DNA of 64,000 nt from a virus, in IMG/VR virus record IMGVR_UViG_3300037852_000102, positions 7,546-71,545 of that record; one strand, 5' to 3'. The notes under the pieces were generated by a model, which searched no databases, was not told the DNA's origin, and was given only the letters and a program-made list of their open reading frames with translations. Numbering within the stretch: position 1 is the first letter of the stretch; every line of letters starts with the position of its first letter. Of the stretch, positions 4,345 to 64,000 are shown piece after piece. The position numbers and the translations under genes are program-made.

Positions 4345-4730
4345 TCGCGTTCGAAACTCACATACGCCAGACCGTCGACGAGTCGCAAGCCCAGCGCCAC
4401 AAACGCGCTCGGAGGTAGATCAATCGCCCGCTTCAATTTCGGATCAGGCCCGATGTCACCGATTCGGCATCGGATGCACAAGCCTGTTGCGACCGCACAC
4501 ACCCTCAGAACGGTGCCAAGCGGTTCGCTAGGCGACGCACAAACGAATCTCTCGGGATCAGGATCGTATGGCCGCAGCCGCTCGCCGGTCGATGCTATCG
4601 TGTCGTCGAAATGGCTGGCGATGCCGGGAGACGGTTCGCGAATCATAATCCTGCGCCATGCGTCATCGAACGTCCCGGCGTTCGCCGAACCCGCCCAGAT
4701 CGCCAACGCAACCGCGAGTGACTTCCTCAC
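4341..4730 (-). CDS. Secreted RlpA-like double-psi beta-barrel protein
   Basis: Signal peptide; TASTGE-like start, LGTVLRV, DIGP...RAIDLPPSAFVALG resembles the RlpA DRGP/IDLS motif. Confidence 0.75.
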   Translation of the reverse strand: MRKSLAVALAIWAGSANAGTFDDAWRRIMIREPSPGIASHFDDTIASTGERLRPYDPDPERFVCASPSEPLGTVLRVCAVATGLCIRCRIGDIGPDPKLKRAIDLPPSAFVALGLRLVDGLAYVSFERE

Positions 4731-5083
4731 AGCCCAGATTTGTGCGAGCTAGGGTGAGCCATCGTAGTCCGCATTTCCTGATTGTTGATGACTTGGTTTA
4801 GCAGCGTGTGCGTGTGCCGCTGGCCCTGATTAAATTCGGTCACGTTCTTTGCGATGTCGGCCAGAATGGCGTTCGTCTTGCGGCGTTCCTCGTTGGCGTC
4901 GTGCGCCTGCAAATAGGTGGGCATGTCCATCGCCGATACATTATTCGACATGCCCTTGCTGTCCCGCTCCCCGCGCCGCCACGCCGCTACCCCAAGAAAC
5001 GTAATGACGATGACGAAAAAGCCCTCGGCAATAGGCCATTTAGCCAAAATGCTTGGGTCAGTTGCCGCTGTGGGGTCTAACAT
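4727..5083 (-). CDS. Single-TM protein with coiled coil
   Basis: MLDPTAATD...GFFVIVITFLGVAAWRR. Confidence 0.6.
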   Translation of the reverse strand: MLDPTAATDPSILAKWPIAEGFFVIVITFLGVAAWRRGERDSKGMSNNVSAMDMPTYLQAHDANEERRKTNAILADIAKNVTEFNQGQRHTHTLLNQVINNQEMRTTMAHPSSHKSGL

Positions 5084-49276: not shown

Positions 49277-49527
49277 CACCGCCGATCCTCTTCAATTGAC
49301 TGGCGAACTGACGCGGACCCATAAATGTTCTCGTCTGTTCGATCATCAAACTGAATGCCCTCAAGCTCTCGGCTTGCCGCCTTTACGGTGTCACAAGCCC
49401 GCGCCAGAGTAGCGCGGATATAGGGAGGGATGCGCTTATCGTCGCATTCGCCTCGCAGAAGTTCGACAACCCGATCCAATCGGGCCATCCTGCGGTCGCG
49501 TTGTGCTTCTGTGATAAATTTTGCCAT
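49276..49527 (-). CDS. Hypothetical protein (first gene of a leftward early unit)
   Basis: CAGCAGCAGGAGA leader. Confidence 0.6.
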   Translation of the reverse strand: MAKFITEAQRDRRMARLDRVVELLRGECDDKRIPPYIRATLARACDTVKAASRELEGIQFDDRTDENIYGSASVRQSIEEDRR

Positions 49528-49532
49528 GGCGG

Positions 49533-49658
49533 TCTCCTGCTGCTGTGCCCATGTTGTCGCATGGGGGAAAACCCGTGTCAAGCACTTTGCGTATTTTCCC
49601 AAATAATTGTTGCAAGCCAGTTTGGGGTGTGCAATAAGGGTCTCACAGCAGCAGGAGA
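49533..49658. promoter_or_regulatory. Divergent early promoters with two operator-like boxes and two CAGCAGCAGGAGA leaders
   Basis: Minus TTGACA 49576-81; boxes 49562-77 and 49588-603; leaders 49533-45 (-) and 49646-58 (+). Confidence 0.7.
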
Positions 49659-49663
49659 GATAC

Positions 49664-49903
49664 ATGCACGGTCGCACATTCAACGTCCTGACCATGGGCC
49701 AGAACGCTACCCTCTGGGGACCGCGTTTGGAATCTTCGCCTCATGCCCGATATTATGGGAAGTGCGGTGTCATCATCGCCAAAGATGGCGAGCCCCGCAG
49801 AGGCCACGGATTCGTCACCCTCCGATTCCCTGATGGGCACATAGCTCGCGTGATGCACCACAACGTCGCCCTCGGCGATAACAGCCGTGCATCGGAGGAT
49901 TGA
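49664..49903 (+). CDS. Hypothetical protein (SH3-like)
   Basis: Leader plus ATG; YYGKCGVII...VTLRFPDG. Confidence 0.55.
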   Translation: MHGRTFNVLTMGQNATLWGPRLESSPHARYYGKCGVIIAKDGEPRRGHGFVTLRFPDGHIARVMHHNVALGDNSRASED

Positions 49904-54875: not shown

Positions 54876-55101
54876 TCATCGGCAGTACCAGCCCTTAAGC
54901 TTCCGCATTGCTCCCAGCACTTCTCGAATGTCGCGGGCGGCGAGTTTTGTTTCCGCCTGTATCAGAATAATGATGGCGCGCTCATTGAGCGCCGGACTTC
55001 GCGAGTGCATCCATTGCGCTCCCGATCCGGATGATGGCCTCGGCAAGAATTTCCTTACTCTCGGGCTTCTCGGCATTCTTCACAACTTTGATATTTGCCA
55101 T
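54876..55101 (-). pseudogene. Small helical protein with an apparent 1-bp insertion
   Basis: MANIKVVK...ALAKSG continues as LNERAIIILIQ only if one base near 54990 is removed. Confidence 0.55.
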
Positions 55102-55217
55102 TTCAATTTTCCTTCAAATCCATGAGCATCCCCCGCCAGCCTGCGGAATGCAGGGAAGCGAGAACCATGCGAGAGCGTAGAGCGGGGCGCAGAGGCCGGT
55201 GAGCTGGAGGACGCGGG

Positions 55218-55433
55218 TCATGCCGTCACCGCAGGATAGCACGCCGCGCCCGTCTCAGGTGCGTCAGCCTTGCGGTCGAAATACCTGCACCGCGAAATCT
55301 GCGTTGACGCTAATCCCGGCGGGAACGTCGTCAGCGAGCACACGCCGTCGCGAACGTCGGTGATGATCGCGGCATACTCGTCGCCAGCTATGGCGCGGTA
55401 GAGTACGGGCTGGGATTTGTACGGCGCACTCAT
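55218..55433 (-). CDS. Hypothetical protein
   Basis: AAIITDV...LTTFPPG; coupled to the ASCH gene. Confidence 0.6.
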   Translation of the reverse strand: MSAPYKSQPVLYRAIAGDEYAAIITDVRDGVCSLTTFPPGLASTQISRCRYFDRKADAPETGAACYPAVTA

Positions 55434-55789
55434 AGCTTCACAAACTCAATTCGGGTGATGACCTTGTTCGGATAGCAACCGCGATGGCTTGCGCAGAAGT
55501 ATTCCACAAATTGCGTTGGCGTATCATGGGGGAACCCTTCTCTCGCGCATTCGCGTTTCCCGTAGTCAGGTTCCTTCGTCATGCGGTTCAGCGGCTCGCG
55601 TCGCACGTCCGCCACACGAATCATCCCGAGCCGCTTGACCTTCTCGCCTTTCTTGAGACCTTGGCCCTTTTCGACCGCGCACAATTCGTCACCAGCCTTC
55701 AAGTTCTCCCAGCCCATGCGCCGCGTCACATCCTTGGTGCCAGCAAGGAACTGCGGAGTCGTAAGCGAAAATGAAATGTTGCGCGGCAT
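55430..55789 (-). CDS. ASCH-domain protein
   Basis: FLAGTKDVTRR.GW..LKAGD...REGF. Confidence 0.82.
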   Translation of the reverse strand: MPRNISFSLTTPQFLAGTKDVTRRMGWENLKAGDELCAVEKGQGLKKGEKVKRLGMIRVADVRREPLNRMTKEPDYGKRECAREGFPHDTPTQFVEYFCASHRGCYPNKVITRIEFVKL

Positions 55790-55793
55790 ATGG

Positions 55794-55842
55794 TCTCCTG
55801 CTTGCTAGCCGAGACGGTGCCACAACGCGGAAAAACCCGCAA
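55794..55842 (-). promoter_or_regulatory. Promoter/operator plus AGCAAGCAGGAGA leader of the ASCH gene
   Basis: CGCGGAAAAACCCGCA at 55826-41; leader at 55794-806. Confidence 0.6.
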
Positions 55843-55861
55843 GTGTTATTTTGGGGTAGTT

Positions 55862-55908
55862 GGGGCGGGCGCTGGCATCTACAGCAAGCAGAAGATAGCG
55901 CCCGCCCC
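55862..55908 (-). promoter_or_regulatory. 12-bp stem-loop carrying the anti-leader sequence
   Basis: GGGGCGGGCGCT/AGCGCCCGCCCC stem; the minus strand inside reads TCTTCTGCTTGCTGT. Confidence 0.6.
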
Positions 55909-56372
55909 GGCGGAACACCTGAGAGGCGGTCCGATTACGGCATTACGTGACTTTGCGCCGTTTCACAATCTCTGGGACCGGAGCATTTGGGGATAACGGC
56001 TTGCCGCAACCCTGCACGAGCGCAGCCCGCAGGAGGTCGTCCAGATCGCCATCCATCGTCGCGTCGAACGGCTGCACAACTCCGGTGCGCAGGTCTTTCA
56101 CATAGCCGCGATCCTGCACGTAGCTGCGAATCTGGTGCCCAAACCCGATCTGATCTCGGATGGGCGGCACGTATGTTTTATCGATCTGGCGCATAGCTAA
56201 ACCCATCCGGCGACGTGCATGGGCCGCACACAAATTCCTGCGGGCGCTGGCGGAACGTGCGGTGCGGATTGCCGCAGCGGTCGCATAGCTCAATGCGGCC
56301 AGCTACCGCCGGATCGTTGCGACGGCGCGACCGCTCTTTGAGAAAATCGCCAGCGTAATAGGGGTGCATCGC

Positions 56373-56576
56373 TCAATGCCTCCGCACGCCAAGGTGCCCC
56401 GCGAACCGCGCGAAGTCGTCCGGGTGCAGCAGAACCACTTTCCCATCCGCCTCCGGCGCGCTCTGAATCGGCCCGGCGTACACCAGCGCATCGTCCTCAA
56501 TCATCACGCACGAGCCCGCCGCAACTCCGCGGTGAATCGAGGCGTCGAATATCTCGGTGGTGCTCATGGTCGTCAT
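56373..56576 (-). CDS. Hypothetical protein
   Basis: VLLHPDDF; coupled. Confidence 0.55.
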   Translation of the reverse strand: MTTMSTTEIFDASIHRGVAAGSCVMIEDDALVYAGPIQSAPEADGKVVLLHPDDFARFAGHLGVRRH

Positions 56577-56791: not shown

Positions 56792-57411
56792 ATTCGCCTC
56801 GGTGCTATTCTGACGACTTGGCCAGTTCCAGATTTAATTTCGGTTTCCGGGATTGGTTCCAAATCCATCGCGCGCTCAATCGACGGTGCCACCAGAACTG
56901 CGGAAAGGTGAGAGATGGTATCTTTTGCGGGCTGCAAAATCTGCAACACCGCAAACCGTAATTCGGCCGGCGACGGCGCAAAACGATAATTATGATCGTC
57001 CCCCAACTCACCCCGATGCCATCGCCGGATAGCCCCTGCAACCGCCCACGGTGGCACGTCATCAAGCGCAGCAAGATATGCCATAGCCCGAGCCCTGCCC
57101 GATTCCTCGCTCCCAGCGGCCATTGGATAGGCCATGAGCATGTTCGCCACCAATCCAAGCCGCGCCTTGCGGTTTTCCGCGCTGTCATCCGATTCCGATA
57201 GCCCGCGCAATTCAGTCACCTTTGCCGCCATCCGTTCACGCTCGTCAGTGCTCAATATTAACCCGCCCGAGAGGTATTTCCGAATCGGTAGGCCGGGGTG
57301 TTGGATCGTGCCCAGCGATATCCTCCGCCACGCTAGACATTCCGGCGAAGAAGTCAGCGCTTGCAGATCGACGTTGCGGGTGGTGATTTCTCGCGCCATT
57401 TGTCGCTCCAT
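56788..57411 (-). CDS. Replication accessory protein (helicase loader/inhibitor-like)
   Basis: AYLAALDDVPPWAV..AIRRW...FAPSPAELR; follows the initiator. Confidence 0.7.
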   Translation of the reverse strand: MERQMAREITTRNVDLQALTSSPECLAWRRISLGTIQHPGLPIRKYLSGGLILSTDERERMAAKVTELRGLSESDDSAENRKARLGLVANMLMAYPMAAGSEESGRARAMAYLAALDDVPPWAVAGAIRRWHRGELGDDHNYRFAPSPAELRFAVLQILQPAKDTISHLSAVLVAPSIERAMDLEPIPETEIKSGTGQVVRIAPRRM

Positions 57412-57898
57412 AGTCGATTGCTCGGTCTATCCAGTTTCGCCAAGCAGCATTCCAGCTTTTCGATACGCGGCCTTTGTCAGCCGCGTAATTTTTGAATTTT
57501 GTAAGTTCGAGTTCGCAACGCTGTAATCCGACCAACGAGATTGAGTTTTGCCAAGCCGTCTCGTCAGGCTTCCAGCCATCAGGCAACTGTGACGCTCGCC
57601 TCTCTCTCTTTTTACTATTTTCTATATTTGAATCTTCCTTAAGAGAGAGAGGTGGAACGTCACCCGTGACGGTTTGTGACGGTTTGTGACGGTTTGTGAC
57701 GGTTTTAGGTGCGCTAACCTGACCGTCACTTGTGACGTTCTGTGACGCCTGTTTCTCGCGCCATTTGCGGGTTCTGAGTGCTGCCTTGGATGGGCCGGCA
57801 GCCATCTCAGCGCCAGCCCGAGCTACCAATCCAGCGGCGTCAACAATATCCATGCCAGATTTGACGAGTGCCGCTATGAGGTCATTGGTCGCGCTCAT
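57245..57898 (-). CDS. Replication initiator (DnaT-like C-terminal domain)
   Basis: RTRKWRE, internal iterons, LPDGWKP, WNAAWRNWI. Confidence 0.8.
   Translation of the reverse strand: MSATNDLIAALVKSGMDIVDAAGLVARAGAEMAAGPSKAALRTRKWREKQASQNVTSDGQVSAPKTVTNRHKPSQTVTGDVPPLSLKEDSNIENSKKRERRASQLPDGWKPDETAWQNSISLVGLQRCELELTKFKNYAADKGRVSKSWNAAWRNWIDRAIDYGATNGARNHHPQRRSASADFFAGMSSVAEDIAGHDPTPRPTDSEIPLGRVNIEH
57600..57747. repeat. Replication origin: 4x10-bp GTGACGGTTT iterons, extra GTGAC boxes, AT-rich tract
   Basis: Tandem copies at 57666-57705; further boxes at 57658, 57724, 57731, 57741; AT-rich 57601-57650. Confidence 0.8.
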
Positions 57899-57956
57899 AC
57901 CAAAAACAATTCCTGTTCGGAACCGATGGCGGCCTGCGGGATTTTATGGGATGGGG

Positions 57957-57985
57957 TTGACGAAAGGCGCTATTCGCCTTAAATC
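57957..57985 (+). promoter_or_regulatory. Antisense sigma70 promoter
   Basis: TTGACG-17-TAAATC. Confidence 0.65.
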
Positions 57986-57991
57986 AGTCTC

Positions 57992-58065
57992 ACCCGATGC
58001 CCGTCGAAAAGCCATCGGCATTGCTACAACGGCCCGCCACCAGCCCGGCGGGTCGTTTGCATTTT
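57992..58065 (+). ncRNA. Counter-transcribed small RNA over the initiator leader
   Basis: Promoter, CCGATG/CATCGG hairpin, AACGGCCCGCC/GGCGGGTCGTT terminator plus T-run. Confidence 0.6.
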
Positions 58066-58105
58066 ATAGCCCCGCATCACGAAACTGTCAAAGATTCCAG
58101 CGCCG

Positions 58106-60862: not shown

Positions 60863-60911
60863 TTGACAGCGTATGGAATTTCCCGCATAACAACGGGGCA
60901 GCAGCAGGAGA
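60863..60911 (+). promoter_or_regulatory. Early promoter, operator and shared leader
   Basis: TTGACA-17-CATAAC; TATGGAATTTCCCGCA at 60872-87; CAGCAGCAGGAGA at 60899-911. Confidence 0.75.
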
Positions 60912-60916
60912 TACCC

Positions 60917-61303
60917 ATGACCAATTACACAGTGAAACTTTCAAAAGCTGACCTAAACATGATTTTTCGTGGGTTAGCTTCTTGGTGCGGAGAACAGTCC
61001 AACCAAGGCAACCCAGAAGGCGCAAACGAAACCCGCGAACTTTATAATCGGCTTGGTGCGCAGACTATCTTGCGGGCTCCCCTTCATAACGAGCCGGTTT
61101 GGATGAAGGACAGAGATCAGCACTTCATCCAATATGCCAGCGGTCGCGTGATACGTTGGCAACTGTCTCGCGGAACTGGCTATTCCACCCGCGCGACGCC
61201 GGATGACGGTATTTGCCTCTACATGGGTGATAATTTCAGCGACGCCGTTCTTGCGCTTCCGCAGAACGCAATCCATCGGCAAATGAAGCAGGAGTCCGCA
61301 TGA
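60917..61303 (+). CDS. Hypothetical protein
   Basis: Leader plus ATG MTNYTV. Confidence 0.6.
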   Translation: MTNYTVKLSKADLNMIFRGLASWCGEQSNQGNPEGANETRELYNRLGAQTILRAPLHNEPVWMKDRDQHFIQYASGRVIRWQLSRGTGYSTRATPDDGICLYMGDNFSDAVLALPQNAIHRQMKQESA

Positions 61304-63330: not shown

Positions 63331-63380
63331 TTGACCGCCTGCGGGAAACCCCGCTAGTGTCGCCGGACAGCAGCAGGAGA
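63331..63380 (+). promoter_or_regulatory. Early promoter, operator and shared leader
   Basis: TTGACC-17-CTAGTG; TGCGGGAAACCCCGCT at 63340-55; CAGCAGCAGGAGA at 63368-80. Confidence 0.72.
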
Positions 63381-63385
63381 CGAAC

Positions 63386-63640
63386 ATGGCAAAAATGCAA
63401 TACATCGTTCTTTGTGGGCAGGTGGTCGGAAGTGGCCCCTTTAACGTCGAATATGGATTTGATGGCAAGAGATTTGATGATCGCGATACCGCCATCCGCC
63501 ATGGATTCAAAGCTGGCCGATCTGACGATTTCAACATCGGCGTGTTGCGAGATGACAAACTCGTAAGTCTCGATTGGATGGATCAAACGGTCGATGCCGA
63601 CCCATCCACGCTAGCTGATATCAGCCAGCAAATTTTCTAA
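63386..63640 (+). CDS. Hypothetical protein
   Basis: Leader plus ATG. Confidence 0.6.
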   Translation: MAKMQYIVLCGQVVGSGPFNVEYGFDGKRFDDRDTAIRHGFKAGRSDDFNIGVLRDDKLVSLDWMDQTVDADPSTLADISQQIF

Positions 63641-63666: not shown

Positions 63667-64000
63667 ATGACCACTTGGCTCAAAGACGCGAACGGCAACA
63701 AATGCTCCGTCGAATATTTCGGATCAAAGGAAGCGGCGAAAGCCGCTCTCGACGGCCTGAAAAATTGCGATAATTGTACCAACTGTTCGCGCTGTTCGGA
63801 CTGTTCGCGCTGTTCGGGCTGTTCGGGCTGTTCGCGCTGTTCGGACTGTTCGCGCTGTTCGGACTGTTCGCGCTGTTCGCGCTGTTCGCGCTGTTCGCGC
63901 TGTTCGGACTGTTCGCGCTGTTCGGACTGTTCGCGCTGTTCGGGCTGTTCGGGCTGTTCGCGCTGTTCGGACTGTTCGCGCTGTTCGGGCTGTTCGGACT
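63667..64000 (+). CDS. Cys-repeat (CSx)n protein, runs off the window end
   Basis: MTTWLKDANGNKCS...NCDNCTNCSRCSDCSRCSG... Confidence 0.75.
   Translation, partial: MTTWLKDANGNKCSVEYFGSKEAAKAALDGLKNCDNCTNCSRCSDCSRCSGCSGCSRCSDCSRCSDCSRCSRCSRCSRCSDCSRCSDCSRCSGCSGCSRCSDCSRCSGCSD
63784..64000 (+). repeat. 9-bp coding tandem repeat TGTTCG(CGC/GAC/GGC), 24 units visible
   Basis: Read directly from the sequence. Confidence 0.97.

Follow-up and report, generated by a model that had tools for sequence, protein, structure and literature searches.

A G+C-rich hairpin lying between two leftward operons of an uncultured soil phage is best explained, with a confidence that falls a little short of even, as a conserved antisense "anti-leader" RNA element located in the 3′-terminal untranslated part of the leftward primosomal/replication operon. 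The explanation is carried by the structure of the hairpin, its complementarity to the leaders of the early genes, its conservation in the same register in a second phage, its strand asymmetry and the position of a promoter beside it. The window, that is, the whole stretch of DNA that was analysed (64,000 nucleotides, with a G+C content of 61%), covers bases 7546-71545 of an IMG/VR virus record (71.5 kb, 82% complete), and the early genes occupy 47-64 kb of it. By using the window as query, no similar DNA was found among cultured phages and plasmids, and its 67-, 168- and 368-aa proteins had no match in the same collections. The initial annotation of this DNA had read the hairpin as an RNA switch that sequesters the ribosome-binding site of the next gene in cis and could silence the other early genes in trans, an interpretation that is partly supported by the results described here.

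The leftward block codes for a RuvC-like resolvase, a DNA methyltransferase and, through weak matches, a primosomal/DnaT-like protein. The features of the site, from the upstream operon into the next one, are the following:

58063-58091, minus strand: near-consensus sigma-70-type promoter (TTGACA-17-TATAAA), read by eye and absent from the promoter scan
55943-56197, minus strand: 84-aa gene, the last of the upstream operon, homologous to the RF2 C-terminus (PDB RF2 chains)
55862-55908, minus strand: G+C hairpin with a 12-bp stem and a 23-nt interior, found by folding and by inverted-repeat search
55881-55895, minus strand: anti-leader TCTTCTGCTTGCTGT, which reads ACAGCAAGCAGAAGA on the plus strand and starts at nt 14 of the hairpin
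55814-55842, minus strand: promoter-like unit between the hairpin and the leader (−35 TTGCGG at 55842-55837, −10 CACCGT at 55819-55814)
55794-55806, minus strand: leader and Shine-Dalgarno AGCAAGCAGGAGA of the ASCH-fold gene (ATG at 55789-55787)
55430-55789, minus strand: 119-aa gene with a predicted ASCH (YqfB-like) fold, which opens the next leftward operon

Judged by its sequence, the promoter at 58063-58091 would drive the primosomal operon whose end is the hairpin. This operon passes through small genes to the 84-aa gene, a 153-nt spacer and the 119-aa gene. The term "replication operon", used in the initial annotation, depends on two weak matches, one to a primosomal PHROG (E 2.9e-7) and one to a DnaT domain (E 2.3e-4). 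Between the promoter and the primosomal gene there is a leader (57899-58091, minus strand) that spans about 155 nt and contains several G+C hairpins, and the scan placed a terminator-like site on the opposite strand at 58028-58057. Inside the primosomal/DnaT-like gene itself (57245-57898), a perfect 12-nt inverted repeat, CCTCTCTCTCTT / AAGAGAGAGAGG, was seen at 57599-57740, a region that also holds a 19-nt inverted repeat at 89%, and a like repeat, GCCTCTCTCT / AGAGAGAGGC, is found at the corresponding position in the gene of a relative with 46% identity (L229, 6247-6299); such repeats may represent a replication origin inside the initiator gene. At the far end of the window, an ORF running off its edge (63667-64000, plus strand) contains a long tandem repeat encoding CS(R/D/G)CS units.

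The homology of the 84-aa protein is confined to the last ~50 amino acids of bacterial release factor RF2 (PDB RF2 chains, E 1.8e-12). Three closer relatives share 64-69% identity with it, one of them on a contig of about 72 kb, and the metagenome matches listed for the family are RF2-like genes with 35-58% identity, many on large contigs of bacterial size. The gene thus represents a free-standing RF2 tail within a phage replication operon. Regarding the 119-aa gene, the end of which is overlapped by 4 nt by the next gene, the label "ASCH" did not hold in profile searches: Pfam PF04266 gave E 0.098 and 13.8 bits, below its cut-off of 21.2, none of 17 family members matched ASCH at E≤0.01, and the protein had no PDB match by sequence. 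The label was upheld by structure prediction, since the model (pLDDT 95.6) retrieved in Foldseek YqfB (E 1.6e-5, TM 0.72/0.82) and ZmASCH (E 3.3e-4), with seven chains at E≤0.001. By structure prediction only, the protein is thus assigned an ASCH/PUA-like beta-barrel fold, YqfB being an ASCH-domain ac4C amidohydrolase.

The stem of the hairpin is perfect, as had been claimed: GGGGCGGGCGCT (55862-55873) pairs with AGCGCCCGCCCC (55897-55908) through 12 bp, 11 of which are G-C, and 23 nt are enclosed. It begins 34 nt past the stop codon of the last gene, directly ahead of a promoter, and no other inverted repeat of the window gives a better G+C hairpin. As minus-strand RNA, the 47 nt fold with −35.3 kcal/mol (z −6.1; none of 200 shuffles was equal), in comparison with −31.3 kcal/mol for the weaker plus-strand hairpin. 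The idea that the hairpin "displays" its antisense needs to be qualified: the apex is predicted to form six further pairs, which shrink the 23-nt interior to a free 5-nt terminal loop, UUGCU, with internal loops, and which take up most of the anti-leader. The opening of the 13 nt costs about 9.0 kcal/mol. No U-tract was found 3′ of the stem on either strand (the minus strand continues AACUACCCCAAAAUAAC and the plus strand GGCGGAACACC), and a terminator scan of the window gave no terminator-like site in the spacer between hairpin and leader; therefore, a defined 3′ end of a small RNA is not evident in the window. At gathering score, no Rfam family matched anywhere in the window, and at E≤10 around the site only three unrelated eukaryotic families appeared (E 0.11-3.9), with one in the distant relative G001 described below; the hairpin belongs to no Rfam family. 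Two other candidates in this region were rejected: a 37-aa ORF across the hairpin (55805-55918, GTG start), because it has no ribosome-binding site, and a weak second hairpin after the stem, which is better read as the AAATA, −35 and operator sequence of the promoter itself.

Over 13 nt, with one G-U pair, the anti-leader TCTTCTGCTTGCTGT is the complement of AGCAAGCAGGAGA, the leader that precedes the next gene, and with one bulge it also matches ACAGCAGCAGGAGA (leader AGCAGCAGGAGA of four other early units); both matches had been pointed out from the sequence alone and both were confirmed. The local leader sits 76 nt further 3′ on the same strand. Copies of AGCAAGCAGGAGA at up to 2 mismatches number 5, against 0.94 expected, a count reached by none of 100 shuffles, and among inverted copies only that of the loop has a single mismatch. 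The 12-mer AGCAGCAGGAGA has exactly four copies in the window, each placed 5 nt ahead of an ATG, with a fifth exact copy in the portion of the record outside the window:

49533-49544, minus strand: early leader copy AGCAGCAGGAGA, ATG at 49527
49647-49658, plus strand: early leader copy AGCAGCAGGAGA, ATG at 49664
60900-60911, plus strand: early leader copy AGCAGCAGGAGA, ATG at 60917
63369-63380, plus strand: early leader copy AGCAGCAGGAGA, ATG at 63386

The calculated duplexes between apex and leaders range from −21.7 to −25.0 kcal/mol in the window, where the local leader is the best partner, and from −18.5 to −22.9 kcal/mol in G001, where the local leader (−19.0 kcal/mol) is not the best target. 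All of them stay favourable once the opening costs (9.0 kcal/mol in the window and 4.0 in G001) have been subtracted. Energy alone is unspecific in such G+C-rich DNA, as 198 of 25,590 tested segments of the window and 327 of 33,874 in G001 reach −20 kcal/mol or lower. In a crude test of upstream complementarity, 2-5 of 200 shuffles did as well as the real sequence in the window and 11 of 200 in G001. The other leader units of the same direction showed upstream complementarity no better than that of shuffles (49 to 179 of 200 as good), which argues for one element per genome rather than for a general insulator. When only nested folding is allowed, the Shine-Dalgarno pairs with a nearby GUCUC (a GUCUC/GAGAC hairpin) rather than with the anti-leader, and the RNAcofold binding energy of 0 is uninformative because the loop-to-target pairing is not nested. 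In pseudoknots of H type, a 13-bp helix between a loop and a downstream segment is sterically unlikely with the stem closed, and here 1 nt separates the stem from the anti-leader.

The leader of the 119-aa gene is preceded by a promoter of its own. The unit at 55814-55842 has a 17-nt spacer containing GGGTTTTTCC and TGTGG, with AAATA upstream at 55851-55847. In total, 13 units from the two phages (5 from the window and 8 from G001) can be aligned, all with AAATA, a −35 TTG, a 17-nt spacer ending in a TGTG-type motif and a −10, followed by the leader after 6-9 nt and by the ATG 4-7 nt after the leader. Given this distance from the −10 in all 13 units, the leader is essentially the whole 5′ UTR. 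The proposal that an internal promoter bypasses the hairpin fits these data, since the local unit lies between hairpin and leader and shares the build of the 12 others. Palindromic GGAATTTCC-like motifs (GGGTTTTCCCC, GGAATTTCCC, GGGAAACCCC and GGATTTTTCC) were also observed at early promoters of the two phages, either within the spacer or a short way upstream of the −35 (in the window at 49545-49646, 55828-55837, 60870-60880 and 63340-63352), and are probably the operator of some regulator. In G001, at about 69.8 kb (4722-4792 of locus L048), a perfect 11-nt inverted repeat, GTAACGTAACA / TGTTACGTTAC, brackets one leader-unit promoter and may be an operator specific to that unit.

A distant relative offers a comparison: G001 (also L048), a phage genome of 84.7 kb with terminal repeats, 100% complete and with a G+C content of 54%. 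A search for the leader followed by ATG across IMG/VR gave at least 112 stretches, and G001 was the sole relative among the matches listed. Its early genes are syntenic with those of the window at 35-60% protein identity, and blastn between the two detected no DNA similarity, intergenic regions included. G001 carries eight exact GCAGCAGGAGA leaders, against 1+1 for a reversed-pattern control. After the homologue of the 67-aa protein (56% identity), its gene order continues with a small cysteine-rich gene, an outer 7-bp stem and the anti-leader hairpin; next come a second, terminator-like hairpin that ends in a U-rich tail, and then a promoter, a leader and an unrelated gene. A likeness of this second hairpin to the core sites of integron attC was rejected, as it is a plain 7-bp terminator stem. 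The small genes ahead of the hairpin (window 56178-56369, minus strand; L242 18324-18569, minus strand) show by eye a C-x2-C ... C-x2-C spacing, and blastp at E≤1e-5 gave no link between the two.

The G001 hairpin at the syntenic site has the form GGGGCGGCCG - 23 nt - CGGTCGCCCC. Its apex reads TCCTGCTGCAA, which contains TCCTGCTGC(AA), and is antisense to 9 nt, GCAGCAGGA, of all eight leaders and to 11 nt, TTGCAGCAGGA, of the three leaders in which these follow TT. Within the 20-kb G001 locus, TTGCAGCAGGA occurs three times (two leaders and the apex), in comparison with 0.01 expected. The distance from anti-leader to local leader is 115 nt. The stems of the two phages share pairs 1-6; at pair 7 a G-C stands against a G-U, and pair 8 shows a compensatory G-C/C-G change; the anti-leader begins at nt 14 of the hairpin in both, and is the best-kept part of the loop (n=2). 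Furthermore, an additional U in the window loop has its counterpart in an additional A of GCAAGCAG, the local leader variant, whereas the loop and the leader of G001 are both without the insertion. The structural covariation seen between these two phages consists of a single compensatory pair, a single G-U and a single matched insertion/deletion. The check for covariation of loop and leader in related phages, suggested in the initial annotation, was thus positive in one relative, where the apex is antisense to that phage's own leader. As in the window, the minus strand is the more stable one (−24.0 kcal/mol, z −3.05, versus −18.2 kcal/mol, z −1.23, for the plus strand, which 20 of 200 shuffles equalled).

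Searches built from these hairpins point to the same pair of phages. The pattern GGGGCGG-N4-10-TYCTGCT-N12-24-CGCCCCAA, composed to fit the two hairpins, had G001 as its sole match across the whole of IMG/VR, and a covariance model made from the window alone placed, with filters off, the G001 hairpin at the top of the 20-kb locus (16.9 bits, E 0.085, with the minus strand scoring above the plus strand); with default filters the same model missed it. MAFFT alignments of the two modules were structurally wrong. Since the arrangement is kept in so distant a relative, the hairpin is more probably an antisense RNA element with a regulatory role than a leftover.

A search of IMG/VR with the ASCH-like protein gave 29 loci, none of which shares the upstream region, and the closest have coding sequence up to the start codon. 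The 84-aa protein, the 71-aa protein and the exact stem pattern had no match in IMG/VR, and an alignment search with the 67-aa protein found only G001. Relatives of the primosomal protein, with identities of up to 46%, were found at 10 viral and 5 genomic loci; none of the 5 viral primosomal loci scanned carries a multi-copy leader, and no comparable hairpin is present in the two closest relatives, L229 and L230. Among 401 genomes from one phylum there was no match, a result that is uninformative.

Over the hairpin, the contigs from runs X1 and X2 show no difference from the window, those of X2, a second soil sample, being identical across 55019-55990, and they consequently offer no variation to compare. 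In the contig of a closer relative from a third sample (X3), the promoter island at 55811-55853 is kept at 41 of 43 positions. On one side of this island X3 has a different leader, AACAGGAGA-N5-ATG, followed by a different gene; on the other side, 201 other letters replace 55854-56408, comprising the hairpin and two genes, after which the 67-aa gene resumes. Homology in X3 thus breaks beside the island, which places the hairpin at a recombination boundary, and the genes behind the promoter differ in the window, G001 and X3, so that this slot behaves like an exchangeable cargo site.

Taken as an anti-leader RNA, the hairpin would operate as follows. The element would be transcribed on the minus strand together with the replication operon, and its apex would be the complement of the short 5′ UTR, from about +1 through the Shine-Dalgarno, that heads every early unit in this phage group. 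Base pairing, begun in the terminal loop, would extend into the weak stem of the apex, cover the ribosome-binding site and block translation, while coupling or polarity would also lower the expression of the genes behind the target. That this RNA is produced, that it pairs and that its effect is repressive are points that we infer. Two kinds of target may be envisaged: the next operon, on read-through transcripts, and all leader-bearing early mRNAs in trans, after processing or termination. Transcripts that begin at the unit's own promoter would carry no anti-leader and would escape control in cis. Action in cis on read-through RNA fits the arrangement in the window, which has no terminator, the local leader as best match and a 4-nt gene overlap. 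Action in trans fits that of G001, in which the hairpin is followed by a terminator and the best matches are leaders located elsewhere; the invariance of the entire leader would also be accounted for by it. The conservation of the leader could otherwise serve promoter escape or translation rather than pairing.

A more far-reaching version of the anti-leader explanation, which we consider rather improbable, treats the leader as an "address tag" on every early unit and the hairpin as a single "anti-tag" RNA that shuts off the tagged mRNAs. Transcription of the replication genes would then let the anti-tag accumulate until all tagged early mRNAs were left untranslated at once; such a system would be the RNA equivalent of T4 RegB, and its two partners, tag and anti-tag, would co-evolve from one phage to another. 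If true, this version would explain the invariance of the whole 5′ UTR, beyond the Shine-Dalgarno alone.

The serious rival to the anti-leader explanation, although still improbable on balance, is an ordinary operon-end hairpin, acting as terminator, transcriptional insulator or 3′ exonuclease stabiliser, and possibly as an RNase III site. Such a hairpin would keep the replication operon, which is strongly promoted, apart from the promoter that follows, and the likeness between loop and leader would be a by-product, for example an inverted leader copy derived from module shuffling, with no pairing involved. Its location 34 nt after the last stop with a promoter directly next to it, its rank as top G+C hairpin of the window's inverted repeats, the terminator-like hairpin that follows its counterpart in G001 and its place at a mosaic breakpoint, where X3 homology ends 8 nt from the hairpin base, are all in line with this rival, and the conservation of the stem far exceeds what mere presentation of a loop would need. 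However, the window has no U-tract on either strand and no scanned terminator there. Terminator loops are unconstrained, yet the anti-leader is the best-kept part while the flanking intergenic DNA is unalignable. By hand arithmetic, the chance of a 9-nt leader match in a 23-nt loop is about 2e-4, and the matched extra base of loop and local leader is left unexplained.

It appears still less likely that the motif works at the level of DNA, the leader being a protein-binding or recombination site and the hairpin copy an inverted second site, with the promoter flanked by two sites that would serve looping, repression or a hot spot of cassette exchange. An 11-14-nt leader is indeed kept far beyond the needs of a Shine-Dalgarno on 5 and 8 units, the cargo genes behind the promoter vary among the window, G001 and the X3 relative, and the distances found here (76 nt in the window and 115 nt in G001) are near those of true divergent units, the inverted leaders of which are about 90-100 nt apart. 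Nevertheless, most leader units lack an inverted partner altogether (2 of 5 in the window and 5 of 8 in G001). In addition, a G-U pair of the stem becomes an A-C mismatch on the other strand or in a DNA cruciform, which favours the minus strand, and the inverted copies retain minus-strand pairing but no longer have the plus-strand GGAG, which reads GAAG in the window and GGAC in G001. Taken together, the greater stability of both hairpins as minus-strand RNA, the lost GGAG and the lack of a start codon or gene after the plus-strand copies favour an RNA in the sense of the operon, and argue against both a relic of a rightward gene and a DNA cruciform.

The reading from the plus strand, as the decayed leader of a lost rightward gene or as a decoy RNA that mimics the leader, is very improbable: although ACAGCAAGCAGAAGA is 1 mismatch off the local leader and the geometry resembles a divergent promoter pair, no start codon follows and no plus-strand gene begins there in either phage, the scan of the site gave no plus-strand promoter, the plus-strand hairpins are the weaker ones (z −1.23 in G001), the G-U pairs stabilise both hairpins as minus-strand RNA, and a neutral relic is not expected to outlast the divergence of the two phages. 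The decayed leader had been named at the outset as the scenario that would refute the switch; with the hairpin kept across deep divergence and more stable on the minus strand, it is disfavoured.

Among known systems, the candidate anti-leader RNA may be compared with hairpins at the end of operons, with antisense RNAs and with a protein that acts on early mRNAs. Intrinsic terminator loops are typically of 3-8 nt, and lambda sib is a hairpin of retroregulation. Like these, the present hairpin is G+C-rich and located just past the last gene of an operon; unlike intrinsic terminators, that of the window has no U-tract, and its loop sequence is conserved and antisense to a neighbouring ribosome-binding site. 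The 23 nt between its perfect arms far exceed 3-8 nt, although the predicted apical pairs would reduce them to a 5-nt loop.

The closest parallel in layout is c4. In phage P1, full repression of ant requires the C4 antisense RNA, with a binding site ahead of icd/ant (PMC8198154). As in c4 of P1 and P7 (immI operon c4-icd-ant), the antisense here is encoded upstream of its target on the same strand, and would lie on the same transcript and block expression of the genes behind. Reportedly, in work of Citron and Schuster from 1990, the c4 loops pair with the icd ribosome-binding site, c4 is cut from a precursor, and translational coupling extends the block to ant. The complementarity expected of a c4-like element is found here, with 13 nt over the Shine-Dalgarno of a leader 76 nt downstream, and 9-11 nt in G001. 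As with the coupling to ant, the gene that follows the target in the window overlaps it by 4 nt. Rfam contains a C4 antisense RNA family, and the present element differs from c4 in having no Rfam match and one hairpin instead of a two-loop RNA. It also differs in its position at the 3′ end of a replication operon and in a target that is repeated on 5 to 8 units.

A second parallel is given by the small RNAs derived from 3′ UTRs, such as OppZ, CpxQ and SroC, among which OppZ acts on its own operon (PMC9438474). The candidate would share with them its origin from the 3′ end of an mRNA, a common promoter and a short conserved pairing region. In G001 a terminator-like hairpin and a U-rich tail come right after the element, whereas in the window there is none and a promoter comes next. 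Unlike those RNAs, the candidate is phage-borne, and its pairing region is inside a very stable hairpin instead of being single-stranded.

With regard to function, T4 RegB is an endoribonuclease that cuts GGAG in early translation initiation regions (PMC3014915). RegB is alike in that many early mRNAs are inactivated through a motif of the ribosome-binding site, and the leader of the present phages carries GGAG; RegB is a protein nuclease, whereas the candidate here is an antisense RNA. P22 sar and lambda OOP differ in another respect: they are made from the opposite strand of their target (cis-antisense), and here the antisense is a separate copy on the same strand. These two RNAs pair with the ribosome-binding region or the end of an mRNA and shut down an early regulator. 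To our knowledge, a single target is controlled by each of the phage antisense regulators known so far, such as P1 c4, P22 sar and lambda OOP. Searches of an open-access library yielded no phage antisense RNA aimed at a leader common to many early units, which is not proof of absence, and global early shut-off is known from proteins, T4 RegB being an example. If the anti-leader explanation is true, one structured RNA directed against a common early leader would represent a compact and programmable timing switch, and would account for the identity of entire 5′ UTRs across the early promoters of a phage. Its signature, a multi-copy leader together with one inverted copy in a hairpin, can be searched for in other uncultured phages.
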